Assembly: GCA_964534375.1 (NCBI GenBank)
Contig: CAZHPN010000065.1
Location: 1-28,640, forward strand
Direction of reading: 5' to 3'
From: an uncultured bacterium
GTDB taxonomy: Bacteria; Lernaellota; Lernaellaia; Lernaellales; Lernaellaceae
Length of the DNA: 28,640 bases
Shown in pieces: positions 3,449-28,640 of the stretch; the first letter of the stretch is position 1; each line of letters begins with the position of its first letter. Made by a program: the position numbers and the translations under genes. Under the pieces are notes generated by a model. That model saw only the letters and a program-made list of their open reading frames with translations, ran no database searches and was not told the origin of the DNA.

Positions 3449-3515
3449 TGCACCTCCTGAAGCCAAATTTTCCCGACTACAAAGAAATCGTGGGACAACA
3501 GCCCCGTAAGGCGAA

Positions 3516-3545
3516 ACTTTAACATTATCCAAACATTGAATGCAA
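3516..3545 (-). promoter_or_regulatory. Possible sigma70 promoter of the MepA-LysM gene
   Basis: Minus strand TTGCAT-N18-TAAAGT with an extended -10 TG and an upstream A-tract (UP-element-like). Confidence 0.4.
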
Positions 3546-4389: not shown

Positions 4390-4425
4390 CGTTTTTACCC
4401 TTGTTCAGGACTTCCGGAGCGGCGG

Positions 4426-4454
4426 AACATACCGAAGGGCGTGGCGTTTGTCAA
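4426..4454 (-). promoter_or_regulatory. sigma70 promoter of rplU-rpmA
   Basis: Minus strand TTGACA-N17-TATGTT followed by a GC-rich discriminator (CCGCCG), as expected for a stringently controlled r-protein promoter. Confidence 0.7.
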
Positions 4455-4691
4455 GCGCGTATTACGGCCGGATTTTCGGCGGCCGTCGGCAGCCGCAAAG
4501 GGCGCGGGCGCGCGGTCGCCGGCGGCGGAGAAGCCCCGGGCGCGGCGGGCAAGAAACAATCGCCGGCAACGCTTGGCGAGCGGCGCGGTTCGTGTTACAA
4601 CCATCGTGCGCGGCGCTGGGAAGGGGATCGGCGTTTCCGGCTTCGCGACGCTCACCATGAATTCGCTGACGAGTCGGGCGGAGGCCGCGCC

Positions 4692-5609
4692 ATGTTCCAA
4701 CTGGAATCACGCGACGATTTGGGCCGGATTCTGGCCTTTCCCCTGGTGAAGGTGCGCACGACGATCGGCCGCGACCCGAACTGCGACATCGTGCTCGAGG
4801 ACGAAGATGTTTCGCGCCACCACGCGCGCATCTACGTGATGGGCGGTCAGGTCAAAATCAAAGACGAAAACTCCGCCAACGGCACGTACGTCAACAATGC
4901 CCCGATCGCCGACATGGCGGACCTGCCGATCGGCGGCGAAATCATTATCGGCTCGAACCTTTTCTTTCTGCGCCAGGTCGACGCCGCGCCGGACGAAGAA
5001 AACCTGCAACTGACGACGATGCTCACCCTCGACCAGTTGCGCGACATGACGCAGAGCTTTTCGTCGCTGCTCGATGACGCGCCGTCCACCGCGAACCTGG
5101 CCGACACCGTGATCCTCAATCGGCGCGAACTGATCGAGAACATTTATCTCAAGCAGATCGCCTTCATGGCCCACCCCACGCTCGAAATCATCTTCGGCCC
5201 CGACAAGGGCCGCAAATACGTGCTGACGCCCGGGGAACACCGCCTCGGCCGCGGCGCCAACTGCAATATCCGCGTCGACGATCCGATGGTCAGCGGTTTG
5301 CACGGCACGATCATGGTCGACAGCGACCAGACCGTCTACACCGACGAAGGCAGCCGCAACGGTTCGATCCTCAACAACAAGATCGTCCAGACCCATCCGC
5401 TGCGCCACCGCGACGTGCTGGTGCTCGGTTCGACGAGATTGAAGTACCTCAACCCGAAGGAAAAGGCCGCCGTGGCGACCGGGGCGCCAATCGGGGCGTA
5501 TCCGGCCGGCGGCGGGCCGTGGCTCGCGCGCTACGGCCTGTGGCTCGGCATCGGCGCCGCCGGCGTCGGGCTGGTCGTCTTGCTGGCGATGCTTTTCTTC
5601 TGGCGCTGA
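4692..5609 (+). CDS. Tandem FHA-domain protein with a C-terminal transmembrane anchor (305 aa)
   Basis: GGAGG RBS, ATG 4692. FHA1: IGRD..D..VSRHHA..DENSANGTYVN. FHA2: LGRG..VSGLHG..DEGSRNGSILN. C-terminal hydrophobic YGLWLGIGAAGVGLVVLLAMLFFWR. Confidence 0.9.
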   Translation: MFQLESRDDLGRILAFPLVKVRTTIGRDPNCDIVLEDEDVSRHHARIYVMGGQVKIKDENSANGTYVNNAPIADMADLPIGGEIIIGSNLFFLRQVDAAPDEENLQLTTMLTLDQLRDMTQSFSSLLDDAPSTANLADTVILNRRELIENIYLKQIAFMAHPTLEIIFGPDKGRKYVLTPGEHRLGRGANCNIRVDDPMVSGLHGTIMVDSDQTVYTDEGSRNGSILNNKIVQTHPLRHRDVLVLGSTRLKYLNPKEKAAVATGAPIGAYPAGGGPWLARYGLWLGIGAAGVGLVVLLAMLFFWR

Positions 5610-5906: not shown

Positions 5907-6968
5907 ATGACCGACCGACCGCGCATTGGCTTTGCCTGCTCGTACACGCCGCTGCCGGTGATCGACGCCGCTGGCTTTCTGCCGCACCGGCTGCTGCCGA
6001 CCGGCGACGCCCCGGCGCAGAGCGGCGCGTTGCTGCACGACAATCTCTGCCCGCACGTCTTGCGCATCCTCGACCGGGCGCTGGCCGGCGAATTTCCGCC
6101 GCTCGCCGGCGTCGTCGTGATGAACAGTTGCGACGCGATGCGCCGCCTCGCTGACGCCTGGCGCACGACCCGTCCGGCGGACCGCCTGATCGTCCTCGAC
6201 CTGCCGATGGCGCCGAGCGCGCAACTGACCGCGGATTTCCGCGAGGAATTGACGCGGCTCGTCGACTTTCTCGTGGCCGCCGGCGGCGTCCGGCCGTCGG
6301 ACGATGCGCTCGCCGAGAGCGTGGCGACGTATCAGGAACTGGCCAGCGGCCTCGATCTGCTTCGTGATCGCGCGCGGCGCGGCGTGTTGCCCGGCGGCTG
6401 GGCAAAACTGCAAGAGATCAACAACCAATCGGTCACGCAGCCCGTCGGCGCCACGCTCGCCGCGATCGGCGCGATTCTCGCGGAAGCCGAGGCGCCCGAC
6501 GGCGCCGCGCGCGGCGCGCCGATCTACTTGATCGGCAACGTTCTGCCCGAGCCGGAGGCGCTGGCGCTCTTCGCCGAGTGCGGCGCGCGCCTGGCGGGCG
6601 AGGACTTGTGCACTGGCGCGCGGCAGCACGCGCTGCTCGATTTCGACGGCCCGGGCGACGCGCTCGACTGCTTCGCGCGGGCGTGGCTGGCGCGCACGCC
6701 GTGCGCACGCACCTTCGACGCCGCGGCGCCGGGCGCCGTCGCCCGCCTGATCGCGGAGAAGGCCAAGGCCTGCGGCGCGCGGGGCGTGGTCGCGCACGTG
6801 ATGAAATTCTGCGACCCGTACCTGGCGCGGCTGCCGTATATCCAAGACGAACTGCAGCGGCAGAATCTGCCCTTGCTGACGCTGATGGGCGATTGCGGCG
6901 GCGGCGCGCTCGGCCAATTCCGGACGCGCCTGGAAGCGTTCGTCGAGATGCTGGGGGCGCGCTCATGA
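5907..6968 (+). CDS. 2-hydroxyacyl-CoA dehydratase family subunit (HgdB/FldC/BcrC-like, HGD-D)
   Basis: IGFACSYTP; three [4Fe-4S] Cys positions NLCPHV, NSCDAMRR, KFCDP; C-terminal GQFRTRLEAFVEML. Confidence 0.9.
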   Translation: MTDRPRIGFACSYTPLPVIDAAGFLPHRLLPTGDAPAQSGALLHDNLCPHVLRILDRALAGEFPPLAGVVVMNSCDAMRRLADAWRTTRPADRLIVLDLPMAPSAQLTADFREELTRLVDFLVAAGGVRPSDDALAESVATYQELASGLDLLRDRARRGVLPGGWAKLQEINNQSVTQPVGATLAAIGAILAEAEAPDGAARGAPIYLIGNVLPEPEALALFAECGARLAGEDLCTGARQHALLDFDGPGDALDCFARAWLARTPCARTFDAAAPGAVARLIAEKAKACGARGVVAHVMKFCDPYLARLPYIQDELQRQNLPLLTLMGDCGGGALGQFRTRLEAFVEMLGARS

Positions 6969-8170
6969 TGCGGGAATATTTCGACAACGTCGCCGGGCAA
7001 CTGGCCGCCAAGATCGCCGCGCAGCCGGAATTGCCGCACGCCCGCCGGCGCTTTGCGCTGGAGACGGCGCGCCTGGGCCAACGCCTGTTCTCGGCGACCG
7101 ACGCGGTGGCGTGGTGCGGCGTGCCCGTTCCGTTCGACCTGCTGCGCGCGATGGACGTGCACTCGTGCTTCATCGAATTCGTCGGCGCGATGATGGCCTC
7201 GGCCGGCGCGGCGGGCGCGATGCTGCAAACCGCGGAGACCGCCGGCTATTTCACCGACAGTTGCGCGTACCACCGCGCCGTGCTCGGCGCCGCGCTGAAC
7301 AACTTGATGCCCGTGCCGGATTTTCTCATCGGCGCGACCACGCCCTGCGCCGGCGGCCTCGCGGCGCTGGAAAATCTTGCGCGGCATTTTCGCAAAGATC
7401 TGTTCGTCCTGCATTTTCCCTACGACGCGGACGAACGGAGCGCGCGCAGCCTCGCGGCCCAATTGGTCGAGATGACGCAGTTCGTCGCGGCGCACACCGG
7501 CCGGCCGCTCGATCCGGACCGCTTGCGCGCCGCCGTCGAAAAAACCAACGCCGCCCGGGCGTTGATGATCGAGGTGTACGACCTGGCCAGGCGCAAGCCG
7601 TCGCCGCTGCGCAGCAACGACCTCAAGGATTTCGGAATCGTCATGCCGTTGTTCTTCGGCTCCGACGCCGCGCTCGAAATCGCGCAAGCGTGGAAAGACG
7701 AACTGACGGGCCGGCTCGCCGCGCCGGCCGGGCCGCCCGAGCGGCTGCGACTGTTGTGGATTCAAAATCGCGTGCAATTCAAGAATCCGCTGATCGCGAT
7801 GTTCGAGGACGAATATCGCGCGAAGATCGTCGCCGACGAGTTGAACGACATCCCCTGGGGCCCGATCGATCCGGACGAGCCGTACCTTGGCCTGGCGCGG
7901 CGGATGCTGACGATCCCGCTGCACGGCGCCCTGCCGCGGCGCATCGAGCGCCTGGTCCGCCTGGCGCGCGAATACCAGGCCGACGGCGCGGTCAATCCGT
8001 GCCACTGGGGGTGCCGCCAGGGAACAGGGGCCAAAGGGTTGATTCAACGCGCCCTGCGCGACGCCGACATCCCGGTGATCAATCTCGAAGTCGATTGCAT
8101 CGACCCGCGCAACTTCGCCGAGGGCCAACTGCGCACGCGGTTGGAAGCATTCTTCGAGATGTTGGGGTGA
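6965..8170 (+). CDS. 2-hydroxyacyl-CoA dehydratase family subunit (HgdA/FldB/BcrB-like, HGD-D)
   Basis: ATGA overlap with the upstream stop; Cys positions DSCAYH, TPCAGG, WGCRQ; C-terminal DCIDPRNFAEGQLRTRLEAFFEML. Confidence 0.9.
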   Translation: MMREYFDNVAGQLAAKIAAQPELPHARRRFALETARLGQRLFSATDAVAWCGVPVPFDLLRAMDVHSCFIEFVGAMMASAGAAGAMLQTAETAGYFTDSCAYHRAVLGAALNNLMPVPDFLIGATTPCAGGLAALENLARHFRKDLFVLHFPYDADERSARSLAAQLVEMTQFVAAHTGRPLDPDRLRAAVEKTNAARALMIEVYDLARRKPSPLRSNDLKDFGIVMPLFFGSDAALEIAQAWKDELTGRLAAPAGPPERLRLLWIQNRVQFKNPLIAMFEDEYRAKIVADELNDIPWGPIDPDEPYLGLARRMLTIPLHGALPRRIERLVRLAREYQADGAVNPCHWGCRQGTGAKGLIQRALRDADIPVINLEVDCIDPRNFAEGQLRTRLEAFFEMLG

Positions 8171-8186: not shown

Positions 8187-9887
8187 TTGTCCGAACCCAC
8201 GCGCCAATCGCCGCCGACGGTCTGGCTTTCGCTCGGGGTTGCGCTGCTGACGCTGGCTGTTTTTGCGCCGGTGCTGCGCGCCGAATTGGTCTTCGACGAC
8301 GAACGCACGATCACCGAAAACCTGCGGGCCCACAGCGTCGGCCAGGCGCTGACGATCTTGTCGCCGGCGAATTCGTGGATCGTCGGCGAAATGACCTGGC
8401 GGCCGTTGACCACGGGAACGTACGTCGTGGTCTACCCCTTTTTCGGCCCGCTTCCCGCGGCGCATCACGCCGTCGATTGGCTGCTGCACGCGCTCAACGC
8501 GGCGCTGCTGCTGGCGCTGCTGGCGCGGCTAGGCCTCGGCCCCGCCGCGGCGGCGTTCGGTGCGTTGTGTTTCGCGCTGCACCCGCTGGTCGTCGGCACG
8601 GTGTCGATGATTTCCTTCCGCGAAGAAACGCTCTCGGCGGCGATCGGGTTGAGCGGCCTGCTGCTTGTGCTCGCCGAACGCCGCGCGCGCCGCGCCGCCG
8701 GGCTCGGGATGATCGGCCTCGCGCTCTTCGTCAAGGAAACCGGCGTCTCGTTCGGCCCGTTGGCGGCGCTGCTGCCGCGTCCCGGCGGCGGTCGCCGTTG
8801 GCGCGACGCCGCGACGCCGATCGCCGTATCGCTCGTGGCGCTGGCGTTGCTGCTCTGGGCCGATCGGTCGACGACGATGTTCGCCGCCGTGGCGAAACAA
8901 GCGGCCGTGCCGTGGGCGGCGCGCTTTTCCCACGCCGGCGAAACGCTGATGGCGTATCTGCGCAATCTCTTCGTCTGGCAGGATCTGTCGCCGGTGCACG
9001 ACGACGCGATCCGCACGACGTTCGGCTCGGCGGCGTCGTTCGCCGGCGTGGCGCTCTTGCTGCTGCTGGCCGGGGCGGCGACGTACGGCTTGTTCCGCCC
9101 GAATCGCGGCTCGCTGGCCGCGGGGATGATCCTCATCCCCTTGCTGCCGACGTTGAATTTGCTCGTTCAGGCTTGGACCGCGCAGTCGGACCGGTTTTTC
9201 TATCTGCCCATGTTGGGCGTGGGTCTCGTCGCCGGCTGGTCGCTCGATCGCCTGCTGGCGCGTGCGCCGGCGGAAGGCCGCGCAACACGATGGCTGACGC
9301 TTGCCGCGGCGGCCGCGATTCTCGCGCTGCTCGCTTGGGGCACGTGCCGCGAGATTCCGCGCTATCGCAACGCGTGGTCGCTTTACTCGACCGTCGCCGC
9401 GCGCCAACCCGGCTCGGCGCTCGGCCAATTTTATTACGGGCAGCAATTGATCGACGTCGGCCGGCCGGCGGAGGCGACGAAGATCCTGGCGCCGCTTTTC
9501 GCGAAATATCCGGAGAACCAGGCCGTCGACCGCGCCTATGCGCGCGCCCTGCTCGACAGCGAGCAGCCGCGCGAGGCGATTCGCGTGCTCTCGGGCCGAG
9601 AATTGAGCGGGCCGACCGGGGCTGCGGCGATGGTCACGCTGCAAGCGGCATACGTGGCGGCCGGCGAAACCGAGGCGGCGATCGCGCTGGGCGAGCGGTG
9701 GCAGGACGCGCCGGCGATCGGCGACGGCGATCGCGCGCTGCTGGCGGCCAACGCCGCGGTTGCGGCGGCGCAACTGGGCCGTGCCGCGCAGGCCGCCGCG
9801 TTCGCGCGGCATGCGCTGGCGCTGAACCCGAATCTGGTCGGCATGCGGCCGATTGCGGACGCGGCGCCGGCGGAGCCCAAACCGTAA
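8187..9887 (+). CDS. TMTC-like GT-C membrane glycosyltransferase (putative O-mannosyltransferase) with C-terminal TPR repeats
   Basis: AGGAGG RBS, TTG start; motifs FDD, WRPLT, FALHP..V..IS.R, KETG, DRFFYLP, YRNAWSLY; many TM helices followed by helical TPR-like repeats. Confidence 0.8.
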   Translation: MSEPTRQSPPTVWLSLGVALLTLAVFAPVLRAELVFDDERTITENLRAHSVGQALTILSPANSWIVGEMTWRPLTTGTYVVVYPFFGPLPAAHHAVDWLLHALNAALLLALLARLGLGPAAAAFGALCFALHPLVVGTVSMISFREETLSAAIGLSGLLLVLAERRARRAAGLGMIGLALFVKETGVSFGPLAALLPRPGGGRRWRDAATPIAVSLVALALLLWADRSTTMFAAVAKQAAVPWAARFSHAGETLMAYLRNLFVWQDLSPVHDDAIRTTFGSAASFAGVALLLLLAGAATYGLFRPNRGSLAAGMILIPLLPTLNLLVQAWTAQSDRFFYLPMLGVGLVAGWSLDRLLARAPAEGRATRWLTLAAAAAILALLAWGTCREIPRYRNAWSLYSTVAARQPGSALGQFYYGQQLIDVGRPAEATKILAPLFAKYPENQAVDRAYARALLDSEQPREAIRVLSGRELSGPTGAAAMVTLQAAYVAAGETEAAIALGERWQDAPAIGDGDRALLAANAAVAAAQLGRAAQAAAFARHALALNPNLVGMRPIADAAPAEPKP

Positions 9888-18335: not shown

Positions 18336-18558
18336 GCATCAAGGTGGCGATAACGCCGCTCGCCGGTCGGTCCGGCCGGTCCGACTTTTCCGATCCGGTG
18401 GACGCCGCGCCGGGCGCAGCCCGGTGTTGATGGGATTTTTGCGTTCGTCGGCCCCGGATTAGCCGCTTTTCACCAATTCTTATCGTGACTACAATGAACT
18501 ACTAACAAAGCGGCGGTAGAGGATGATGAGAAAAGCGCAGCCAGAGGTGGAGAAGGTC

Positions 18559-19245
18559 ATGCCGAAGCCATGCATTTTGGTGGTCGATGACGAGGAGGAC
18601 ATCCTCGAGTTGGTTCATTACAACCTGGCCAAGGAGGGCTATCAGGTGGAAACGGTCGCCACCGGCGAGGAAGCGCTCGCGGCCGCGCGGCGCCGCAAGC
18701 CGGACCTGGTGCTGCTTGATCTGATGCTGCCCGGCCTCGACGGACTCGAGGTGTGCAAGAAATTGAAGGCCGACCCGGCGACCGCGCCGATACCGATTGT
18801 CATGCTCACCGCCAAGGGCGAGGACGCGGACATTGTCGCCGGCCTCGAACTCGGCGCCGACGACTACATTACCAAACCGTTCAGCCCGCGGGTGCTGACC
18901 GCCCGCGTGCGGGCGGCGTTGCGGCGGCGGCGCGTCGAACCGCCGACCGGCGACTCGGTTTTCCGGACGCGCGAAATCTCGATCGACCTGGGCCGGCACG
19001 AGGTGCGCGTCGCAAACCAACCGGTCGAACTCACCGCGACCGAATTCAACATTCTGCATTTTCTGGCCTTGCGCGCGGGTTTGGTGTTCACGCGCGGGCA
19101 AATCATCGACGCCGTCAAAGGTTCGGATTACCCAGTCACGGAACGCAGCGTGGATGTGCAGATCGTCAACCTCCGCCGCAAACTGGGCGACGCGGGCGAC
19201 GATATCGAGACAGTGCGGGGCGTCGGCTATCGCTTGAAAGAGTAA
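18559..19245 (+). CDS. OmpR/PhoB-family response regulator (PhoB/PhoP-like)
   Basis: ILVVDDEEDI, LLDLMLPG (phospho-Asp), MLTAKGE, GADDYITKPFSPR, winged helix RSVDVQIVNLRRKL..IETVRGVGYRL. Confidence 0.95.
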   Translation: MPKPCILVVDDEEDILELVHYNLAKEGYQVETVATGEEALAAARRRKPDLVLLDLMLPGLDGLEVCKKLKADPATAPIPIVMLTAKGEDADIVAGLELGADDYITKPFSPRVLTARVRAALRRRRVEPPTGDSVFRTREISIDLGRHEVRVANQPVELTATEFNILHFLALRAGLVFTRGQIIDAVKGSDYPVTERSVDVQIVNLRRKLGDAGDDIETVRGVGYRLKE

Positions 19246-20112: not shown

Positions 20113-20898
20113 GTGCGGAATATTCATCCGACAGCGATCGTCGATCCGGCCGCCGAATTGGGCGAGGATGTCGACATCGGTCCGTTTTGCGTCGTCGAAC
20201 GCGACGTAAGAATTGGCGACCGCACTGTTCTGCAGGCGCGGTCGATGGTCCGGCGCTGGACGGAACTCGGCGCGGACAACAAGCTGCTGCCCGGGGCGGT
20301 CCTCGGCGGCGACCCGCAGCATCTGGCGTATAAAGGTGAGCGCACCGACCTGCGCATCGGCGCCGGCAATTGGTTCGGCGAACACGTCACGATGCACCGC
20401 GCCAGCAAGCCGGAGTCGGCGACCGTCATCGGCGACAACAACTATTTCATGGCCTATGCGCACGTCGGCCACGACTGCCATTTGGGCGATCGCATCGTCA
20501 TGACCAACTACAGCGGGTTGGCCGGCCACTGCGTCATCGAGGACCGCGCGCTGCTCGCCGCCTACTCCGGCGCGCATCAGGGCGTGCGGGTCGGCCGCAT
20601 GGCGATGCTCGGCGCCGGCGGGCTGGTCGGGCAGGATGTGCTGCCATATCTCGTCGTGCAGGGCACGCCGGCCGGGCCGCGAGGCCTGAATACGATCGGC
20701 ATGCAGCGCAACGGCGTGCCGGCCGAAACGCGCCGCGTGCTTCAGGAAGCCTATCGCATTCTGTTTATGTTGAAGCTCAGTTTGCCGAACGCCGTGGCGA
20801 AGCTGCAGGCCGAATTGCCGGACCTGCCCGAATTGCGGCACTGGCTGGAGTTCATCGCCCAAAGCAAGCGGGGCATCGCCCGCAGGAGAACCTCGTGA
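20113..20898 (+). CDS. lpxA: Acyl-ACP--UDP-N-acetylglucosamine O-acyltransferase
   Basis: IHPTAIVDP hexapeptide repeats; GGDPQH; MAYAHVGHDC (catalytic His); LAGH; HQ; QDVLPY; GLNTIGMQR; AGGGAG RBS, GTG start. Confidence 0.96.
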   Translation: MRNIHPTAIVDPAAELGEDVDIGPFCVVERDVRIGDRTVLQARSMVRRWTELGADNKLLPGAVLGGDPQHLAYKGERTDLRIGAGNWFGEHVTMHRASKPESATVIGDNNYFMAYAHVGHDCHLGDRIVMTNYSGLAGHCVIEDRALLAAYSGAHQGVRVGRMAMLGAGGLVGQDVLPYLVVQGTPAGPRGLNTIGMQRNGVPAETRRVLQEAYRILFMLKLSLPNAVAKLQAELPDLPELRHWLEFIAQSKRGIARRRTS

Positions 20899-21860
20899 AC
20901 GACAAACAACGGCTGCGCGTCGCCGTCGTCGGCGTCGGCCACATGGGCCGCTACCACGTCGGCGCCTACAGCGAGATCCACAATGTCGACGTCGTCGGCG
21001 TCTGCGACATCGATGCGGCCCGCGCCGCCCAGGCCGCCGCGCCCTTCAACTACCCGACCTACACCGACTACCGCGACCTCTTCGGCAAGACCGACGTCGT
21101 CACCGTCGCCGCGACCACCGAAATGCACTACGCGATCACCAAGGATTTTCTCGAGCACGACATCCACGTGCTGCTGGAAAAGCCGATCGCGCCGACGCTC
21201 GGCGAGGCCGAGGCGCTGTTCGAGTTGGCGGCGAAGCGCCATCTTGTGCTGCACGTCGGCCACGTCGAGCGGTTCAACGGCGCCGTGCAGGAATTGAAGA
21301 AGATCGTCGTCGAACCGATTCTCGTCGAAAGCCGGCGCGTCGGCCCGTGGACCGGCCGCAGCGTGGTCACCGGCGTCGTGATGGACCTGATGATCCACGA
21401 CATCGACATCGTGCTGAACCTCGTCGATCAGCCCGTCGTCGAGCTGGAGGCGCTCGGCCGCAAGGTGCGCAGCGATTACGAAGACCTGGTGACCGTGCAG
21501 ATGCGCTTCGCCGACGGCGCGCTGGCGACGATGCTGGCCAGCCGCGTCACCGAGGAGAAGTTCCGCACGCTGGGCATCCACCAGCCCGACGCGTACATCA
21601 TGTTGGACTACAGCACGCAGGATATCCAAATTCACCGGAGCACCAGCAGCAGCACGCAGGTGGGCGACAACCATTTGAAATATCGGCAGGAGAGCATCGT
21701 CGAACGGGTGTTTATCCATAAGGGCAATCCGCTGAAATTCGAAATCCAGCATTTCCTCGACAACGTCACCGGCGCCAACGGCCGCTTGATCGGCGTCGAG
21801 CGCGAACTGCGCAGCTTCAAGGTCGCGCTGCAAGTCGCGGAGATGGTCCGCGGGAAGTGA
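20895..21860 (+). CDS. Gfo/Idh/MocA oxidoreductase, probable GnnA-type UDP-GlcNAc 3-dehydrogenase
   Basis: GTGA overlap with lpxA; VAVVGVGHMG, LLEKPIA, VGHVERFN, DLMIHDID. Position next to lpxA matches gnnA. Confidence 0.85.
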   Translation: MNDKQRLRVAVVGVGHMGRYHVGAYSEIHNVDVVGVCDIDAARAAQAAAPFNYPTYTDYRDLFGKTDVVTVAATTEMHYAITKDFLEHDIHVLLEKPIAPTLGEAEALFELAAKRHLVLHVGHVERFNGAVQELKKIVVEPILVESRRVGPWTGRSVVTGVVMDLMIHDIDIVLNLVDQPVVELEALGRKVRSDYEDLVTVQMRFADGALATMLASRVTEEKFRTLGIHQPDAYIMLDYSTQDIQIHRSTSSSTQVGDNHLKYRQESIVERVFIHKGNPLKFEIQHFLDNVTGANGRLIGVERELRSFKVALQVAEMVRGK

Positions 21861-21868
21861 ATTGAGAC

Positions 21869-21991
21869 TTTAAACACGGAGAGCACAGAGAATGGCGCAG
21901 AAGGCACAGAGAAGACACAGCGGCAATATTGGAACACAACAATATTTTCTCTGTGTCCACTGTGTGCCCTCTGTGTTCTCTGTGTCTAAAA
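21869..21991. repeat. ~120-bp imperfect palindrome built from CACAGAG units (REP/MITE-like)
   Basis: Left arm TTTAAACACGGAGAGCACAGAG...AATATTG; right arm CAATATT...CTCTGTGTTCTCTGTGTCTAAA; much more AT-rich than the flanking genes. Confidence 0.85.
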
Positions 21992-22006
21992 TTCCAACAC
22001 CGACCC

Positions 22007-22834
22007 ATGTCGCCGCCAACTGACAAACCCCTGGGCATCCTCGCCGGCGGCGGACGCCTGCCGTTGCTGGCCGCGCGGGCCGTGGCGGCGCGCGGGCGGC
22101 CGGTCGTCGCGGTGCAGTTCGCGGAAACCGGCCAGCGCGGCCTGGCGCGGCAGTTGCCGCAGGGCGCGGCGACCTTCAGCCTGGGGCTCGTCGGCGCGAT
22201 GCTCGAACACTTCCGCGCGCACGGCGTCGAGGATCTGCTCTTTCTCGGCAAGGTCGAGAAGGGGCTCAATTTCGCCGATATTCGGTTCGACGACGTCGGT
22301 TTGGCGATGCTCCAGCGCCTGCCGGGCCGGGCCGACGGCGCAATCTTCGCCGTCGTCGCCGAGGAACTCGAGGCGCGCGGCTTCCACATCGCTTCGCAGG
22401 CCGCGGAGTTGGCCGAGTGGCTCGCGCCGGAGGGCCATTTGGCCGGGCCGGCGCTGCATTCGAGCCGCGCCGCAGACGTTGCGCGGGGCTTCGAGGTGGC
22501 GGCGGCGCTGGCCGCGTACGACGTCGGCCAGACAGTCGCGATCAAAAACGGCGTGGTCGTCGCGGTCGAGGCGTTCGAGCACACCGACGCCTGCCTGCGC
22601 CGGGCGGGCCGGCTCGCGGGCAAGGGCCTCGTCGTCTGCAAGACCGCGCGGCCGAAACAGGACCCGCGCTTCGACGTGCCGGCCGTGGGGCCGGACACGC
22701 TGAAGACCTTGGGCCGGCTCGCCGCCGCGGGCCTCGCGATCGAAGCCGGGCGCACGTTTTGGCTGGAGCAGGAGAAATGCCGCGAATTGGCGGCGCAGTT
22801 CGGGGTCAGCGTGATCGGCGGCCGACGCCGTTAA
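22007..22834 (+). CDS. lpxI: UDP-2,3-diacylglucosamine diphosphatase LpxI (DUF1009)
   Basis: LGILAGGGRLP, DVGQTV, AVEAFEHTD, K.ARPKQDPRFDVPAVG, LAIEAGRT; lipid A operon context. Confidence 0.92.
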   Translation: MSPPTDKPLGILAGGGRLPLLAARAVAARGRPVVAVQFAETGQRGLARQLPQGAATFSLGLVGAMLEHFRAHGVEDLLFLGKVEKGLNFADIRFDDVGLAMLQRLPGRADGAIFAVVAEELEARGFHIASQAAELAEWLAPEGHLAGPALHSSRAADVARGFEVAAALAAYDVGQTVAIKNGVVVAVEAFEHTDACLRRAGRLAGKGLVVCKTARPKQDPRFDVPAVGPDTLKTLGRLAAAGLAIEAGRTFWLEQEKCRELAAQFGVSVIGGRRR

Positions 22835-22860: not shown

Positions 22861-24525
22861 ATGCGACGCAGTTTGTTGGTCATCGCGTTGATCGTGTCGG
22901 CGGCTGTGGCCGTGACCGCCGGCGCCTGGGCCGACGACAGCCAGACGACTTCCGCCGGCGCCCAGGCGACGCCGGCGCCCGCGCCCGCGGCCGAGTCCTC
23001 GCCGGAACCCGCCGCGGCGCCGCCGGCGCCCACCGCAGCCGACAATCAGAAGGAAATCGAACGGCTGCAGGCCGAGATTGCCGCTTTGGAGAAGCGCCTG
23101 GCCAGCGTCGAGGGCAACGTGGCGAAGAACTGGGACCCGAATCGCGACGGCGTGCGGCTCGGCGAGAAAATCTGGTTCACGTTCCACGGCGAATTCCGCA
23201 GCCGCGCGATTATCGAGGCCAACACGAAAAACGCCTACACCAACTATGCCGGCGAGCGCCTGTACGCCTACGATCCGAAATCGACGCTGGAGAACGATTA
23301 CGGCTGGTGGGATTCGCGGCTCCAGGTGCGCACCGGGTTCAACTTCGCCAACCGCGCCGAACTGGTGGCGATGATCCAGTTCGGCGACGTCAATTGGGGT
23401 TCGCAAACGGCGGCGTTCGGCGAGTCGGGCACGTCGATTTACGACAAGCCGATGCCCTATTTCCGCGAACTGTACGCCCGGGTCTCGATGGACCCGATCC
23501 CGATGACGCTCGTCTTCGGCCGCGTCCCGATCGACTTCATCGGCAATCGGCTGATCATCGGTTACGAGCACAACGGCGCCTACACCTACTTCGGCCCGCG
23601 TTGGCTGCAATTCGGCTTTGGCGGCTTCCGCGACTACGAGGGCGAACCGTATGAGTACGGCAAACGCTATAACGACGACGAAGACATGTTCCTCGCGTGG
23701 CTCAACACCGTGCCGGCCGCGGGGCAAAAACTCCAGTTCTTCGGTTGGATGCGAGACCTGATCGTCGCGGCCAAGCCCGTGCAGCTCGATCAGACGAGCC
23801 CCTTGTACAGTTTGCCCGGCTTCACGCAGGACAAGTACACCGGCCAGAACGGGCAAGTGTGGGACGTCGGCGTCAATTGGGTCGGCGACTTCGGCCCCGT
23901 GACCCTCAACGCCGAAATCGACCAGGAGATCGGCGTGCTGCCCGCGTCGCATTCGGCCGCCGCGGACGGCGCGCGGGACATTCACTTCAATGGCCGCGCC
24001 GCGTTTCTGAAGACGGATTGGCACGTCGACAACCTCGACTGCCTCGCGTTGACCGGCGGTTACGGCTCGGGCGACAATCCGAAATCCCAGAACTACTCGG
24101 GCTTTTGGGCGCCGGACAACGAGTACATCATCCGCGACTTTTACCGCGAAGAACCGATCCAGCGCGGCACGTTCATGGTCTACAATTCGATCGCGCCGGG
24201 CGCGGGCGTGCCGGGCGCGTTGAAGCAGAACCTGGGCACGGGCGGCATCGAGAATACGATCTTCGCCAACCTCGCCGCCGACCTCGGCATTCAGGACAAC
24301 CACCACTATTACATCAGTTGGGGCTACATCCGCGCGGCGGAGCCGAATCCGGTGACGCATTCGGCGGACATCGGCTGGGAAATGGACGCGCGCGTCGACT
24401 ACCTGTTCAACTCCAACGTGACGTTCTCGATTTACGGCGGGCATTTGTTCATGACGGGCAATTATTTCCGCGAGCACGCGCACGACGCCGCGGCGATCTT
24501 CTTCGAATGGAAACTGTCGTGGTGA
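22861..24525 (+). CDS. Outer-membrane beta-barrel protein (porin/alginate-export-like) with an N-terminal Pro/Ala linker and coiled coil
   Basis: Signal peptide (AWA-DD); coiled coil QKEIERLQAEIAALEKRL; FHGEFRSR; aromatic-rich alternating strands; DIGWEMD; terminal aromatic strand FFEWKLSW. Confidence 0.8.
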   Translation: MRRSLLVIALIVSAAVAVTAGAWADDSQTTSAGAQATPAPAPAAESSPEPAAAPPAPTAADNQKEIERLQAEIAALEKRLASVEGNVAKNWDPNRDGVRLGEKIWFTFHGEFRSRAIIEANTKNAYTNYAGERLYAYDPKSTLENDYGWWDSRLQVRTGFNFANRAELVAMIQFGDVNWGSQTAAFGESGTSIYDKPMPYFRELYARVSMDPIPMTLVFGRVPIDFIGNRLIIGYEHNGAYTYFGPRWLQFGFGGFRDYEGEPYEYGKRYNDDEDMFLAWLNTVPAAGQKLQFFGWMRDLIVAAKPVQLDQTSPLYSLPGFTQDKYTGQNGQVWDVGVNWVGDFGPVTLNAEIDQEIGVLPASHSAAADGARDIHFNGRAAFLKTDWHVDNLDCLALTGGYGSGDNPKSQNYSGFWAPDNEYIIRDFYREEPIQRGTFMVYNSIAPGAGVPGALKQNLGTGGIENTIFANLAADLGIQDNHHYYISWGYIRAAEPNPVTHSADIGWEMDARVDYLFNSNVTFSIYGGHLFMTGNYFREHAHDAAAIFFEWKLSW

Positions 24526-24618
24526 CGCGCGGGCGCGAACCGCGCACTTGACCGGAACGCGCCGGCGGCGTGAAATGCATCCGCGTGGGCGATAGTGAAG
24601 GGACAACGGAGGAAACCG

Positions 24619-25077
24619 ATGCGTCGTTCGACCGTCTTGTTGCTGATCGCACTGGCGCTCGCGGCGTCGACCGCGGCGTGCGGGTGGCGGTCGTCCGGCT
24701 ACGCGAACGATTTTCCGGAAGAAGACTGGGGCAATTACGACTACGTGCTGCGCGGCCCGGCGCCGATCGCGCATTATCCCAAGACCGTCGTGGAATTGAA
24801 CGTCAACGACGACGGCACGGTCGACGGCGTGGTGTCGAGCATCATCTGGTCGCAGTTCACCGGCGCCCTCAGCGGTGAGACGCTGACCCTGAATCTGGCG
24901 TTCTCCGACCCGGCCTGCGCCGGCGAATCGCACGGCGAATTCTGCGGCCAGTTCACCGGCAAAACGCTGGCCGGCACGTTCGAAATCCAATCCTGCCAAT
25001 GGTACTCGTTTGCTTTCGACGGCGGGCTGGTCGGCGGGCGCGACTGGACGCCGGCGGACGGCGAAGGAACGCCATGA
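24619..25077 (+). CDS. Lipoprotein of unknown function (152 aa)
   Basis: GGAGG RBS, ATG 24619; signal peptide II MRRSTVLLLIALALAASTAAC; acidic, beta-rich mature domain. Confidence 0.75.
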   Translation: MRRSTVLLLIALALAASTAACGWRSSGYANDFPEEDWGNYDYVLRGPAPIAHYPKTVVELNVNDDGTVDGVVSSIIWSQFTGALSGETLTLNLAFSDPACAGESHGEFCGQFTGKTLAGTFEIQSCQWYSFAFDGGLVGGRDWTPADGEGTP

Positions 25078-25093
25078 CGGCCGCGGGAGCATA

Positions 25094-26941
25094 ATGCTGG
25101 AGCGGCTGGCCGAATACGATCGCCTGATTTTCTACGCGATCAATCACGACTGGTCGGATCCGGGCCTCGACGTTTTGTTCGCGTTTTTCACGTACCTCGG
25201 CCACAGCGCGGCGCTGGCCCCGCTCGGCCTGCTTTGCCTGTACGCCTTCGACCGCAAGAATTTTCCGAAAAACTTCCTCGTGATGGGCGCGGTGCTGCTG
25301 TTCGGCGGGCTGTGGGTCCAACTCGTCAAAGCCTTTATCGACCGCCCGCGGCCGTTCGCCGACCCGCTGCTCGGGGCAGACACGGCGGCGGCGATCAAGA
25401 CGAGCCTCTTCGGCCTGGTCGACGAATGGAACGTGCCGCTGGCCCCGCGGCTGCCGGCGCTGGCGTACTGTTCGGGCGCGCTGCACCTCATCGGGCCGCG
25501 GCTCGCCCGCCATTCCTACCCGAGCGGCCACGCCGCCGCCGCCTTCGGCGCCGCGACGGCCTTGACCTACGCCTACCGGCGCTGGTTCTGGCTGTTTTTT
25601 CTGCCGGCCGCCGCGGTCGCGGTCAGCCGCGTTTATGTCGGCGCGCATTTTCCGCTGGATGTCGTCATCGGCGCGCTGATCGGCGTCGTCAACGCCTGGG
25701 CGCTGCTCGATTGGCTGCGGCCGTACACCGGCATCGGCCTGCGCCGGCCCCGGACGTTCGCGCCGGCGGCGTCGCCCCCGGGCCAGCCGTTGATCATGCT
25801 GACCGCCGGCGAGGCGAGCGCCGATGCGTATGCCGCGCGGCTGGTCGCGGCTTTCAAGGGGACCACGCCGGGCGCGCGGTTCATCGGCGTCGGCGGCGAG
25901 CAGACAATCGCGGCGGGCCTCGAGCCGCTGGGCCGCGCCGACGAGCTGGCGATCGTCGGCTTCACGGGGGTGCTGACGGGCCTGCGCGGCCTGCGGCGCG
26001 TCTACCGCGCGTTGCTCGGGGCGATGGACCGCCGCCGGCCCGACGCGCTGGTGTGCCTCGATCTGCCGGACTTCAACCTCGGCCTCGCGAACCAGGCCAA
26101 GGGGCGCGGCATTCCGGTGCTCTACTACATCAGTCCGCAGGTGTGGGCGTGGCGGCCGGGGCGGATCGCCACCATCGCCGACCGCATCGACCGCATGGTC
26201 GTGACGCTGCCGTTCGAAAAGCCGCTGTACGAAAAAGAGCACGTGCCCGTCGACTTTTTCGGGCACCCGATTCTGGAAACGATTCGGCCGAAATACGCGT
26301 CGCGCGACGAGGCCCGCCGCGCCTTCGGCCTGGCGCTCGACTGCCCGGTCGTCGTGCTGGCGCCGGGCAGCCGCAGGAATGAAATCGCGCACCTCGCGCC
26401 CGTGCTGGCGGGGGCGGCGCGGCTGCTGGCGGCGCAGCGGCCCGACCTGCAATTCGTCGTGCCGCTCGCGCCGACCGTCGACGACGGCGAAGTGCGGGCG
26501 ATTTTCGCCGCGGCGGGCGTCGCGCCGGCGTACACGCGCGGCGAATATTACGACACGGTCGCCTGCGCCGACGCGGGGATCGTCACCAGCGGCACGGCCA
26601 CGCTCGAAGCCGCCCTGGCCGGCCTGCCGCACGTCATCGTCTATCGCGGCAACGTCCTGAATTACGCGATCGCCCGCCGTGTGGTGCAGGTGGACAAAAT
26701 CGGCCTGCCGAATATTATTCTGGGGCGGGTTGCTTTCCGCGAGCTGATCCAGAAAGAATGCACCCCGGAGGCGGCGGCCGCCCAGGCGCTGGCGTTGCTG
26801 GCGGGTCCCGCACGGGAGGCGGCGCTCGCGGCGTGCGCCGAGGTGCGCCGCGCGCTTTCCGGCGGCGAGGTCAGCCGGCAGACGGCCGCGGCGCTGCAGG
26901 CGCTGATTCGGCGCCGGCCGCCGGCGACGGACGCAAAATGA
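25094..26941 (+). CDS. lpxB: Fusion of a PAP2-family membrane phosphatase (N-term) and lipid-A-disaccharide synthase LpxB (C-term), 615 aa
   Basis: GGGAG RBS. PAP2 motifs KAFIDRPRP, SYPSGH, SRVYVGAHFPLDV. In the same frame, LpxB motifs AGEASAD, DLPDFN, YYISPQVWAWR, LPFE, GHP, LAPGSR, TSGTATLE, IGLPNII. Confidence 0.92.
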   Translation: MLERLAEYDRLIFYAINHDWSDPGLDVLFAFFTYLGHSAALAPLGLLCLYAFDRKNFPKNFLVMGAVLLFGGLWVQLVKAFIDRPRPFADPLLGADTAAAIKTSLFGLVDEWNVPLAPRLPALAYCSGALHLIGPRLARHSYPSGHAAAAFGAATALTYAYRRWFWLFFLPAAAVAVSRVYVGAHFPLDVVIGALIGVVNAWALLDWLRPYTGIGLRRPRTFAPAASPPGQPLIMLTAGEASADAYAARLVAAFKGTTPGARFIGVGGEQTIAAGLEPLGRADELAIVGFTGVLTGLRGLRRVYRALLGAMDRRRPDALVCLDLPDFNLGLANQAKGRGIPVLYYISPQVWAWRPGRIATIADRIDRMVVTLPFEKPLYEKEHVPVDFFGHPILETIRPKYASRDEARRAFGLALDCPVVVLAPGSRRNEIAHLAPVLAGAARLLAAQRPDLQFVVPLAPTVDDGEVRAIFAAAGVAPAYTRGEYYDTVACADAGIVTSGTATLEAALAGLPHVIVYRGNVLNYAIARRVVQVDKIGLPNIILGRVAFRELIQKECTPEAAAAQALALLAGPAREAALAACAEVRRALSGGEVSRQTAAALQALIRRRPPATDAK

Positions 26942-28640
26942 ACGACACGAAGAACGAGCAAGCGGGTTTCGCGCGGCGTACGGCGTCGGCGGTCGGCGCG
27001 CGCGTTCGCCGGTCGGCGAGGGAGCGTTTCGACCGCTTCCGCGCGAGCCGCGAATATCAGATTTTCGCCCGGCTCTTCCGCTACTTCCTGCCTTACAAAA
27101 TCTGGGTCGCCGTGGCGCTGGGGTTCGCGCTGGTGGTGTCCACCGCGGACGGCGCGGTGCCGGCGTACCTCGTCCAGCCGATCATGGACAAGATTTTCGC
27201 CAATCCGGACAAGACGACGGCCTACGCGTGGCTGAGAATGATGCCGTTCCTGATCGTCGCCGTGTTCGTGGGGAAGGGCGTGCTGCGGTTCCTGCACAAT
27301 TACATCATCTGCGTCATCGGCCAACGCGTGATCCGCCAGGTGCGGGGTCAACTCTACGAGCATTACCAACAGCTTTCGATCGACTACTACACCGACACCA
27401 ACACCGGCGTGATGATGAGCCGCATCACCAACGACGTGAACATGATGGAGCGGGCCGTGCCCGCGCTGACAAGCATGATTCGCGACCCGTTCGGCGTGCT
27501 GGGTCTGGCCGTGGTCGCCGTCGTCATGTGGTGGAAGATGGCGGTGATCGTCATCGTCATCACGGCGCTGACCGCGTATCCGATCCAACTGTTCGGGCGC
27601 AAGGTCCGCAAATACACCGGCCGCGGCCAGACGTTCATGGGCTTGATGAACACGATCCTCAAAGAAAACTTTTCCGGCATCCGCGTCATCAAGGCGTTCG
27701 GCATGGAGAAATATGAGATCGAACGCTTTCGCAAGGAGAACGAACGGGTCTACGGGGCCAATGTCGCCCGCGTAAAATACGATGAACTCACCGCGCCGGC
27801 GATCGAGGCCCTGGGCGCGATCGCGCTATCGGCCGTCGTGGTCTTCGGCGGCGCGCAAGTGCTCAGCGGCGTCATCACGACCGGCCGGTTTTTCTCGTTT
27901 GTCGCCGCCGTGCTCCTGATGTACGAGCCCTTGAAGCGCACCGCGCGGATGTACACCGCGTTTCAGAGCGCCATCGGCGCCGCCGAGCGCGTCTTTGACG
28001 TGCTCGACACCTCGGCCACCATCGCCGACCGCCCCGGCGCGGCGGAACTGCCGCCGATTCGCGACCGCATCGATTTCGAGCACGTGCAGTTCTGCTACCA
28101 CGGTTCGCCGGACATCGTGCTGCACGACTTCAACCTCGAAGTGCGCGCCGGTCAGACCATCGCCATCGTTGGCGGCAGCGGCTCCGGCAAGACGACGCTG
28201 ATCAATCTGATCCCGCGGTTCTACGACCCGACCGGCGGGCGCATTCTCATCGATGGCGTGGACCTGCGCGACGTGACGATGACGAGCCTGCGGCGGCAAA
28301 TCGCGATGGTCACGCAGGATACTTTCCTGTTCGACGACACGGTGCGGAAGAACATCGCCTACGGCCGCGGCGACGCCGACCTCGCGCGCATCGTCGACGC
28401 CGCGAAAATGGCCTACGCGCACGATTTCATCATGTCGTTTCCGAAAGGTTACGACACCGACATCGGCGAACTGGGCGTGAAGCTTTCGGGCGGCCAACGG
28501 CAGCGGCTGGCGATCGCCCGCGCGCTGTTCAAGAACGCGCCCATTCTGATTCTCGACGAAGCGACGAGCAGCCTGGACACCGAATCCGAGCGCGAGGTGC
28601 AACTGGCGCTCGAGAACCTGATGCAGGGCCGCACGACGTT
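26938..28640 (+). CDS. msbA: Lipid A export ABC transporter (MsbA-like), 3' end runs off the window
   Basis: ATGA overlap with the lpxB stop; my translation (MNDTKNEQ...FARLFRYFLPYK) gives a 6-TM domain (MSRITNDV, GIRVIKAF), Walker A GGSGSGKTT, LSGGQRQR, ILILDEATSSLD. Confidence 0.9.
   Translation, partial: MNDTKNEQAGFARRTASAVGARVRRSARERFDRFRASREYQIFARLFRYFLPYKIWVAVALGFALVVSTADGAVPAYLVQPIMDKIFANPDKTTAYAWLRMMPFLIVAVFVGKGVLRFLHNYIICVIGQRVIRQVRGQLYEHYQQLSIDYYTDTNTGVMMSRITNDVNMMERAVPALTSMIRDPFGVLGLAVVAVVMWWKMAVIVIVITALTAYPIQLFGRKVRKYTGRGQTFMGLMNTILKENFSGIRVIKAFGMEKYEIERFRKENERVYGANVARVKYDELTAPAIEALGAIALSAVVVFGGAQVLSGVITTGRFFSFVAAVLLMYEPLKRTARMYTAFQSAIGAAERVFDVLDTSATIADRPGAAELPPIRDRIDFEHVQFCYHGSPDIVLHDFNLEVRAGQTIAIVGGSGSGKTTLINLIPRFYDPTGGRILIDGVDLRDVTMTSLRRQIAMVTQDTFLFDDTVRKNIAYGRGDADLARIVDAAKMAYAHDFIMSFPKGYDTDIGELGVKLSGGQRQRLAIARALFKNAPILILDEATSSLDTESEREVQLALENLMQGRTT

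Follow-up and report, generated by a model that had tools for sequence, protein, structure and literature searches.

The locus described here raises the question of how a single polypeptide could serve both faces of a membrane in lipid A synthesis. The window (the whole stretch of DNA analysed, 28,640 nucleotides) is the entire contig C65 of a 381-contig, 94%-complete, 6.3-Mb metagenome-assembled genome from an uncultured wetland bacterium of the phylum FEN-1099/Lernaellota. Positions 25094-26941 of its forward strand formed a single open reading frame (ORF) of 615 amino acids (aa) without an internal stop, in which a PAP2 membrane phosphatase domain was joined through a linker to LpxB. We lean, by a modest balance, to the reading drawn from sequence comparison that the product is a bifunctional two-sided enzyme, which would anchor LpxB to the membrane and constitutively remove the 1-phosphate of lipid A before glycosylation. 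Both protein families and the proposed chemistry were already known. New are the fusion across the membrane, the operon with MsbA and a glycosyltransferase of the GT-C type, the spread through a whole phylum and the derivatives in which the catalytically dead domain persists as an anchor. The features of the fusion gene and its 3' neighbour were as follows.

25085..25089, + strand: Shine-Dalgarno-like GGGAG, 4 nt 5' of the fusion start codon, read from the sequence
25094..26941, + strand: fusion gene (protein P0001), LpxE-like PAP2 domain, linker and LpxB, from the ORF, Pfam and NCBIfam
25094..25729, + strand: PAP2 membrane domain, residues 1-212, from AlphaFold2 (AF2) models, PDB profile search, Foldseek and charge counts
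25328..25354, + strand: PAP2 motif C1, K79-x6-R86-P87, invariant in 29/29 aligned fusions
25355..25519, + strand: predicted periplasmic insert between C1 and C2, residues 88-142, modelled as a three-stranded sheet (101-105, 109-116, 129-133) with a predicted local distance difference test score (pLDDT) of ~76-89
25520..25531, + strand: PAP2 motif C2, P143-S-G-H146, with S, G and H invariant in 29/29
25625..25660, + strand: PAP2 motif C3, S178-R-x5-H185-x3-D189, with R, H and D invariant in 29/29
25730..25789, + strand: predicted cytoplasmic linker, residues 213-232 (20 residues), Arg/Pro-rich, pLDDT <50 in the domain-only model
25790..26941, + strand: LpxB (lipid A disaccharide synthase, GT-B fold), residues 233-615, from Pfam, TIGR00215 and Foldseek
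26938..26941, + strand: ATGA, fusion stop overlapping the msbA start, read from the sequence; overlap or abutment recurs in related loci
26938..28640, + strand: msbA, cut by the contig end, TIGR02203 503 bits (cut-off 602)

The frame of the fusion gene opened at 25010 and closed with the TGA at 26939-26941; its start codon, the ATG at 25094, lay 3' of the point where the upstream ORF stops (25077). At 13 related loci the frame opened just 2-33 codons upstream of the aligned start, and at loci L008 and L018 only 2 codons before it, which ruled out a hidden extra N-terminal helix. The junction between the two domains contained no stop codon. The sequence-only reading had described one ORF with three PAP2 motifs, a linker and a complete LpxB, and had seen neither a stop nor a Shine-Dalgarno start at the junction; Pfam, NCBIfam and the translation agreed with the former statement, and reading of the sequence confirmed the latter. 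An in-frame ATG (M235, 25796-25798) was located at the position where stand-alone LpxBs begin. An internal start at this codon, giving free LpxB, was considered and judged unlikely: no Shine-Dalgarno-like run was seen 5' of it when the sequence was read, and Met was absent from this stretch in 7 of the 29 aligned fusions.

Pfam placed PAP2 (PF01569) at residues 62-208 (E 1.2e-22, 80.5 bits against a cut-off of 27.2), and at E values up to 0.01 the fusion protein yielded LpxB, PAP2 and PAP2_3 only. An alignment of 29 fusions with 34-76% identity revealed that the nine residues K79, R86, P87, S144, G145, H146, R179, H185, and D189 were invariant in every sequence. P87 and P143 were separated by 55 residues, the count bearing out the long loop (~55 aa) between motifs 1 and 2 that had been noticed earlier. 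The segment 82-144 measured 56-67 residues in all 29 sequences, its length being kept and its sequence not conserved, and the stand-alone PAP2 relatives among the matches listed fitted residues 1-206 into ~178 residues. The domain folded alone with a pLDDT of 84, and its seven AF2 helices (2-17, 23-35, 38-52, 57-81, 145-160, 162-181, and 187-212) had the same number and order as those described for the LpxE of Aquifex aeolicus. This LpxE (6EBU) came top when the PDB was searched with a profile built from 12 PAP2 domains (98.8 bits, E 3e-27), in which E. coli PgpB scored 49 bits and B. subtilis YodM 48 bits. Foldseek with the PAP2 domain alone also placed 6EBU first (E 2.7e-7, TM score 0.81 on the target, root-mean-square deviation 3.0 A, 29% identity) and YodM second; with the whole fusion model, the rows shown were LpxB and other GT-B matches, and PAP2 was not seen among them.

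According to the LpxE structure paper, 6EBU is a proven lipid A 1-phosphatase whose N-terminus and active site are periplasmic; of its seven helices, the N-terminal one is amphiphilic and lies at the periplasmic surface, the second goes half-way into the membrane and five are transmembrane (PMC6581854). The PAP2 domain of the fusion resembled it in the order of the seven helices, in the C1 and C3 motifs and, as modelled, in the amphiphilic N-terminal helix outside, the periplasmic site and the C-terminus inside. 6EBU is a small-type PAP2 enzyme that stands near B. subtilis YodM/PgpB. Unlike the fusion, Aquifex LpxE stands alone, has 180 residues and bears nothing fused C-terminally; its C1-C2 loop is ~35 residues shorter, and its C2 reads PSGD in the alignment, whereas that of the fusion reads PSGH. 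The mean loop charges of the 29 sequences were -1.1 for the N-tail, +1.4 for the helix 3-4 loop and +2.4 for the helix 5-6 loop, and the linker segment 209-232 had an average net charge of +2.3. Homology to 6EBU together with these charges supported a model in which the N-terminus is outside, the PAP2 site periplasmic and the C-terminus inside. Since C3 lies at the start of helix 7 and the site would be periplasmic, helix 7 is predicted to end in the cytoplasm; LpxB needs UDP-diacylglucosamine and so must be cytoplasmic. The two active sites are thus predicted to face opposite sides of the membrane. This was the arrangement that the sequence-only reading had put forward, with the PAP2 site outside and LpxB inside on one polypeptide and the last PAP2 helix returning the chain to the cytoplasm, and both parts were borne out in silico, the latter by the 6EBU homology and the charge distribution.

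The LpxB half was assigned by Pfam (PF02684, residues 234-593, E 1.4e-89, 301 bits against a cut-off of 22.6) and by NCBIfam (TIGR00215 lpxB, 288.4 bits against 190.25). The top three Foldseek matches of the fusion model were the E. coli LpxB structures 5W8N, 5W8S, and 5W8X at 33-34% identity, and the high deviation from the crystal LpxB fits the strand-swapped dimer of the latter. Directly after LpxB and before other GT-B proteins, Foldseek listed a Tetrahymena complex I subunit (8b6f_A0, 8gym_T1, and 7tgh_T1; 472-491 aligned columns, TM score 0.44-0.46 on the query). E. coli LpxB is a peripheral protein without a transmembrane part, whereas the LpxB of the fusion would be tethered by a seven-helix enzyme domain. 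The fusion was the sole LpxB match in the 94%-complete genome. LpxC, LpxK, and WaaA were present elsewhere in this genome, and lpxA and lpxI were inside the window; lpxD was seen in the relative G002, the genome of the window itself not having been searched for it.

Two observations could fit the idea that assembly or gene calling falsely joined two neighbouring genes, namely that the source record is a metagenome-assembled genome in 381 contigs and that eight shorter LpxB-only proteins stood inside the fusion clade of a tree built from the LpxB part (84 rows, quick search, unrooted, with support from the Shimodaira-Hasegawa-like approximate likelihood ratio test, SH-aLRT). However, the junction was bridged unchanged by contigs from an independent sample (X3, a wetland run not marked as a possible source), which matched 25522-26405 without any difference or gap. 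Two possible source runs had contigs identical over 24900-26504 and 24900-26717. Furthermore, of the 17 species genomes that represent the phylum, 15, the source genome included, showed the same unbroken full-length architecture at 39-66% identity, and both Pfam families were present in 67 of the best 120 protein clusters listed (90% identity). Four of the eight short proteins started at an internal Met just 5' of GEASAD and two a few residues earlier, the N-termini of two looked out-of-frame, and six were on contigs of 1.8-16 kb; P0083 (137-kb contig) and P0108 (468-kb contig) may be true splits. The search of the phylum genomes and the independent contig refuted an artefact at this locus, and its probability is practically negligible. 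The alternative of two separate genes, named in the sequence-only reading, fails on the same evidence. The RNA run X8 contributed a single contig of 257 nt (25208-25462), on which neither the fusion nor its junction can be claimed to be transcribed.

The two remaining genomes of the phylum were explained individually. In G008 (77% complete) the fusion gene lay in three frames and its GT-C neighbour was truncated too. G011 had no fusion match, and its neighbouring GT-C gene was at the end of a short contig, for which reason this miss was read as probably an assembly gap. The distribution figures rest on whole-genome searches of the 17 species genomes of the phylum; a contig scan with a PAP2 profile (at least 600 stretches, of which at least 78 were stand-alone and at least 2 were fusion loci of the phylum) is unfit to bound the distribution. 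An exhaustive scan of 1.84 billion representatives at 50% identity gave 4402 LpxB-like matches at E 1e-30, and full-length fusions made up 8 of the best 150, which indicates that the fusion family is small. Many metagenomic fusions were just 50-55% identical to any genome of the phylum. The sources that name these proteins label them plain lipid-A-disaccharide synthase, and the phosphatase half has thus been overlooked in annotation. No PAP2-LpxB or LpxE-LpxB fusion was found described in the literature. LpxB is not mentioned in the LpxE structure paper (PMC6581854), and the terms 'lipid A', 'lipopolysaccharide' and 'LpxB' are absent from the main text of the Lernaellota paper (PMC9324843). 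To the question of distribution posed earlier, the answer is that the fusion of PF01569 and PF02684 is phylum-wide, patchy in a second phylum and undescribed in the literature found.

The genes around the fusion also belonged to lipid A synthesis. Its stop overlapped the msbA start in ATGA, as first noticed from the sequence alone, and this tight coupling was kept in related loci. The contig ends inside msbA. Contig C318 opened with the last 59 codons of msbA, followed by an ArnT-like GT-C gene (C318:182-1720) and waaA/kdtA, and the end of C65 (28620-28640) overlapped C318:1-21 over ~21 bases with one mismatch, the two contigs together giving a complete msbA. The overlap points to an assembly break inside an operon that reads [PAP2-lpxB]-msbA-GT-C-waaA in the genome. 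The best match of the genome to PMT_2 (ArnT-like GT-C) ended 4 nt before waaA on C318. PMT_2 gave 73 matches in the genome, 62 of them marked over the family cut-off, which is a very large expansion; one weak match was inside the window, at 8484-8852, in an ORF (8187-9887) with TPR_19. In 13 of 16 relatives the GT-C ortholog was found on the same strand ~1.8 kb past the fusion gene, a distance equal to the length of msbA, and the remaining 3 had contig breaks. The position of waaA 3' of the GT-C was checked in 3 genomes. The relative G002 carried the string bamA-skp-lpxD-lpxA-gfo-lpxI-barrel-[PAP2-lpxB]-msbA-GT-C-waaA with touching or overlapping genes, and just 3' of waaA (L139:14870-17587) a protein of 905 aa that joins a GT4 glycosyltransferase to a radical SAM/SPASM domain. 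The genes upstream of the fusion in the window were as follows.

20113..20898, + strand: lpxA, from Hexapep and Acetyltransf_11
20913..21860 (start approximate), + strand: Gfo/Idh/MocA oxidoreductase between lpxA and lpxI, at the same position in G002 (L139:4628-5617)
21929..22834, + strand: lpxI (UDP-2,3-diacylglucosamine hydrolase), from LpxI_N and LpxI_C
22861..24525, + strand: barrel protein of the outer membrane that carries a signal peptide, an Ala/Pro-rich region and a coiled coil, from synteny
24595..25077, + strand: ORF of 160 aa outside any Pfam family, its signal lipoprotein-like, lying between barrel gene and fusion gene

At all 13 related loci the barrel gene stood directly 5' of the fusion gene, which makes it a member of the lipid A operon; in this genome the 160-aa ORF, particular to it and unmatched in the 13 loci, lay in between. 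The barrel protein, for which the queries began at 22831, 10 residues before its start, had no Pfam family. Its Atlas look-alikes carried Alginate_exp (PF13372), a lead towards an alginate-export-like porin. The Gfo/Idh/MocA oxidoreductase might be GnnA-like, which would point to a diamino-sugar backbone.

Taken in the order of the pathway, the LpxB domain would make lipid A disaccharide 1-phosphate at the cytoplasmic face, where its membrane domain would tether it. The disaccharide would be completed on the inner face, LpxK, WaaA, and LpxC being in the genome, and lipid A would then be flipped by the co-translated MsbA. On the periplasmic face the PAP2 domain, of the Aquifex LpxE type, is expected to strip the 1-phosphate, and the ArnT-like GT-C encoded right after msbA would probably then add a sugar at that position, in the manner of the rhizobial LpxE and RgtF. 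Since the phosphatase is made one-to-one with the sole LpxB, the modification would be constitutive. The architecture, its conservation and the operon were read from the sequence, and the topology was deduced from homology and charge; the substrate, the order of the steps and the sugar transfer are what we infer from them. In the rhizobial route, LpxE removes the 1-phosphate and RgtF, a GT-C enzyme, adds galacturonic acid (PMC7663294). The lipid A of Aquifex likewise has galacturonic acid in place of phosphate (PMC6581854). The likeness to the rhizobial LpxE/RgtF/RgtE set lies in a PAP2 phosphatase and a GT-C that are encoded with lipid A genes and that both act, or are predicted to act, after flipping by MsbA. 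In contrast, the rhizobial phosphatase is a separate gene not joined to LpxB, and the GT-C linked to the fusion belongs to no named family. The operon at the G002 locus showed no RgtE-like donor synthase, and EptA_B_N (EptA-type phosphoethanolamine transfer) had no match in the 94%-complete genome.

Extensions of LpxB occur in other forms as well. The long LpxB of chlamydiae carries an N-terminal membrane extension called LAB_N, and the fusion is similar to it in having an N-terminal extension of ~230 residues on LpxB. The chlamydial extension is LAB_N, whereas that of the fusion is a PAP2 enzyme domain with intact motifs. Pfam found no LAB_N in the fusion protein at the threshold given above, in line with the earlier statement that the fusion is not of the chlamydial type, and the fusion matched positions 229-597 of the 610-position LpxB profile PRK01021, which is the LpxB part only. 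Other LpxB fusions were LpxB-MsbA (P0168, 1013 aa), LpxB-WaaA (P0183, 865 aa), and Gfo/Idh/MocA-LpxB (P0201, 718 aa); judging from these sequences, repeated fusion of LpxB with neighbours from its operon seems to occur. In those proteins the active-site domain of the partner is cytoplasmic, whereas PAP2-LpxB would have its active sites on opposite membrane faces.

Outside the Lernaellota, a junction-spanning query (residues 140-330) was used. Five genomes from other phyla (Polyangia, Nitrospiria, Syntrophobacteraceae, Bdellovibrionota, and Aquifex) had a PAP2 relative and an LpxB at separate places. Fused genes were found in a second phylum, that of a genome labelled 'Polyangia bacterium', where a fused match was present in 1 of 101 genomes of a phylum sample, 4 of 101 of a class sample and 4 of 61 of an order sample. 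The query was also run against all 44 genomes of one family of this phylum; 5 gave strong junction-spanning matches at 46-53% identity, 2 gave weaker ones, 1 had a fusion-type LpxB alone, 17 had an ordinary LpxB and 19 had nothing at E 1e-10. G060, G176, and G188, which were read through, kept all three PAP2 motifs. One of the weaker matches, G182, encoded P0079, the only LpxB match in that genome at E 1e-10. P0079 belongs to a set of seven proteins (528-573 aa) in which the first 150 residues had no Pfam family. Profile-profile alignment of the seven proteins was continuous from a loop of the 'DRRRFPKN' type through helix 7, covering helices 2-7; helix 1, C1, the insert and C2 were deleted, and the C3 residues were replaced. 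In the LpxB tree, the seven motif-less proteins and one LpxB-only row formed an 8-row clade (100), which was nested in the 28-row fusion clade (100) with five genomes of the family f3 of the window's phylum. From this nesting in an unrooted tree, the fused gene seems to have been transferred out of a Lernaellota lineage, and some recipients probably then lost the phosphatase and kept the helices. As the helices were kept after the loss of all catalytic motifs, the membrane domain would also be an anchor for LpxB, of value by itself.

Several results weigh against a dedicated lipid A 1-phosphatase. The motif-less variants show that LpxB function needs no phosphatase. At seven loci of the second phylum, no msbA, GT-C, barrel gene, or waaA was found within ~10 kb, and no GT-C ortholog was found in 5 of these genomes at E 1e-15, so that the motif-intact copies there have kept the phosphatase without that partner. 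The GT-C itself had no NCBIfam name and no PDB sequence match, ArnT included, and its acceptor could be Kdo or another group. The LpxE equivalog PRK09597 was matched at 15.9-18.2 bits, below its cut-off of 177, and the best partial NCBIfam matches were undecaprenyl-diphosphatases (SepP, 52-57 bits, cut-off 250). Additionally, Aquifex LpxE is trifunctional, acting on lipid A 1-phosphate, undecaprenyl pyrophosphate (C55-PP), and phosphatidylglycerophosphate (PGP) (PMC6581854), and the likeness to it thus leaves the substrate unfixed. The SepP matches and the motif-intact copies of the second phylum that lack the msbA and GT-C context also speak for the view that the PAP2 domain is mainly a housekeeping C55-PP and/or PGP phosphatase, fused as an anchor, for which lipid A is not the physiological substrate. 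This view is further favoured by PRK11837 (undecaprenyl-diphosphatase) and PgpB, which were among the partial NCBIfam matches as well, all below their cut-offs, and by the promiscuity of the Aquifex LpxE/YodM subgroup (PMC6581854). However, an Aquifex sp. homolog of 6EBU also had SepP on top and no PRK09597 match: the PRK09597 model is narrow, and NCBIfam is unable to assign the PAP2 subtype. The genome already contained BacA/UppP (248 bits) and two further PAP2 genes, and the fusion PAP2 is therefore not needed for carrier recycling. A housekeeping role also sits poorly with a gene embedded in lpxA-lpxI-...-msbA-GT-C-waaA with overlapping stops and starts throughout the phylum, and with PgpB and YodM scores that were half that of LpxE in the PDB profile search; we regard it as unlikely, though to be taken seriously. 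A stand-alone PAP2 paralog of 189 aa (L002:1300-1869, contig C54) had K-x6-H-P for KX6RP and PSNH for PSGH, and each relative in the phylum had a similar small PAP2 of ~190-250 aa; this paralog could be a 4'-phosphatase or a carrier phosphatase.

The membrane domain might instead be a structural anchor, as is thought for LAB_N in Chlamydia, with its phosphatase chemistry incidental or vestigial. The sub-lineage in which helices 2-7 stayed joined to LpxB although helix 1, the insert and all three motifs were lost, its well-supported nesting within the fusion clade, and the finding that motif-less P0079 is the only LpxB match of G182 at E 1e-10 all agree with this view. Nevertheless, the invariance of nine catalytic residues in 29 sequences of such divergence and the conserved length of the insert would be unexpected of a vestige, and we consider a mere anchor rather improbable. 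A transfer of phosphate from C55-PP to lipid A in the manner of LpxT, giving the 1-diphosphate, is very improbable indeed. LpxT is a PAP2 protein that acts on the periplasmic face (PMC2229476), and the motifs alone fail to tell hydrolases from transferases, but the nearest solved relatives are hydrolases, and no LpxT family was among the NCBIfam matches, no LpxT sequence having been compared directly. A further idea is a coupling device, in which flipped lipid A would be bound by the periplasmic PAP2 domain and its clade-specific beta-sheet insert; the domain would signal the supply in the outer leaflet through helix 7 and the linker to LpxB and so set the rate of synthesis. Such a device, which might work within an assembly line that includes MsbA and the GT-C, is judged very doubtful. 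The contact with MsbA that had been suggested from the sequence found no support, since co-folding of the PAP2 domain with the membrane domain of MsbA (score 0.00 in two runs) says nothing either way. Among the three PAP2 functions that the sequence-only reading had offered, the sequence evidence thus moves most towards lipid A 1-phosphatase, as its nearest solved relative is LpxE, a GT-C follows msbA phylum-wide, and BacA and two other PAP2 genes are present; carrier recycling and LpxT-like transfer gain less.

The remaining annotated genes of the window were unlinked to the fusion.

1790-3532, - strand: LysM/Peptidase_M74 protein
4401-5609, + strand: double-FHA protein
5907-6968 and 6578-8170, + strand: two HGD-D (2-hydroxyglutaryl-CoA dehydratase D-component) ORFs
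18523-19245, + strand: OmpR-type response regulator

If the two-sided reading is true, one protein acts twice on the same molecule, at the inner face in the first membrane-committed step and, after flipping, at the outer face, and [PAP2-LpxB]-MsbA-GT-C-WaaA is a compact module. The retention of helices without motifs suggests an acquired dependence of this LpxB lineage on its covalent anchor, and the catalytically dead copies are a natural experiment that separates anchoring from chemistry. Should the coupling device exist, it would give a phylum that lies outside the proteobacterial LapB/PbgA-LpxC system a direct route for feedback. For the Lernaellota as a whole, an uncultured phylum, a bifunctional fusion would predict a lipid A that lacks the 1-phosphate and is probably glycosylated, which would affect the binding of cations and cationic peptides by their lipopolysaccharide.

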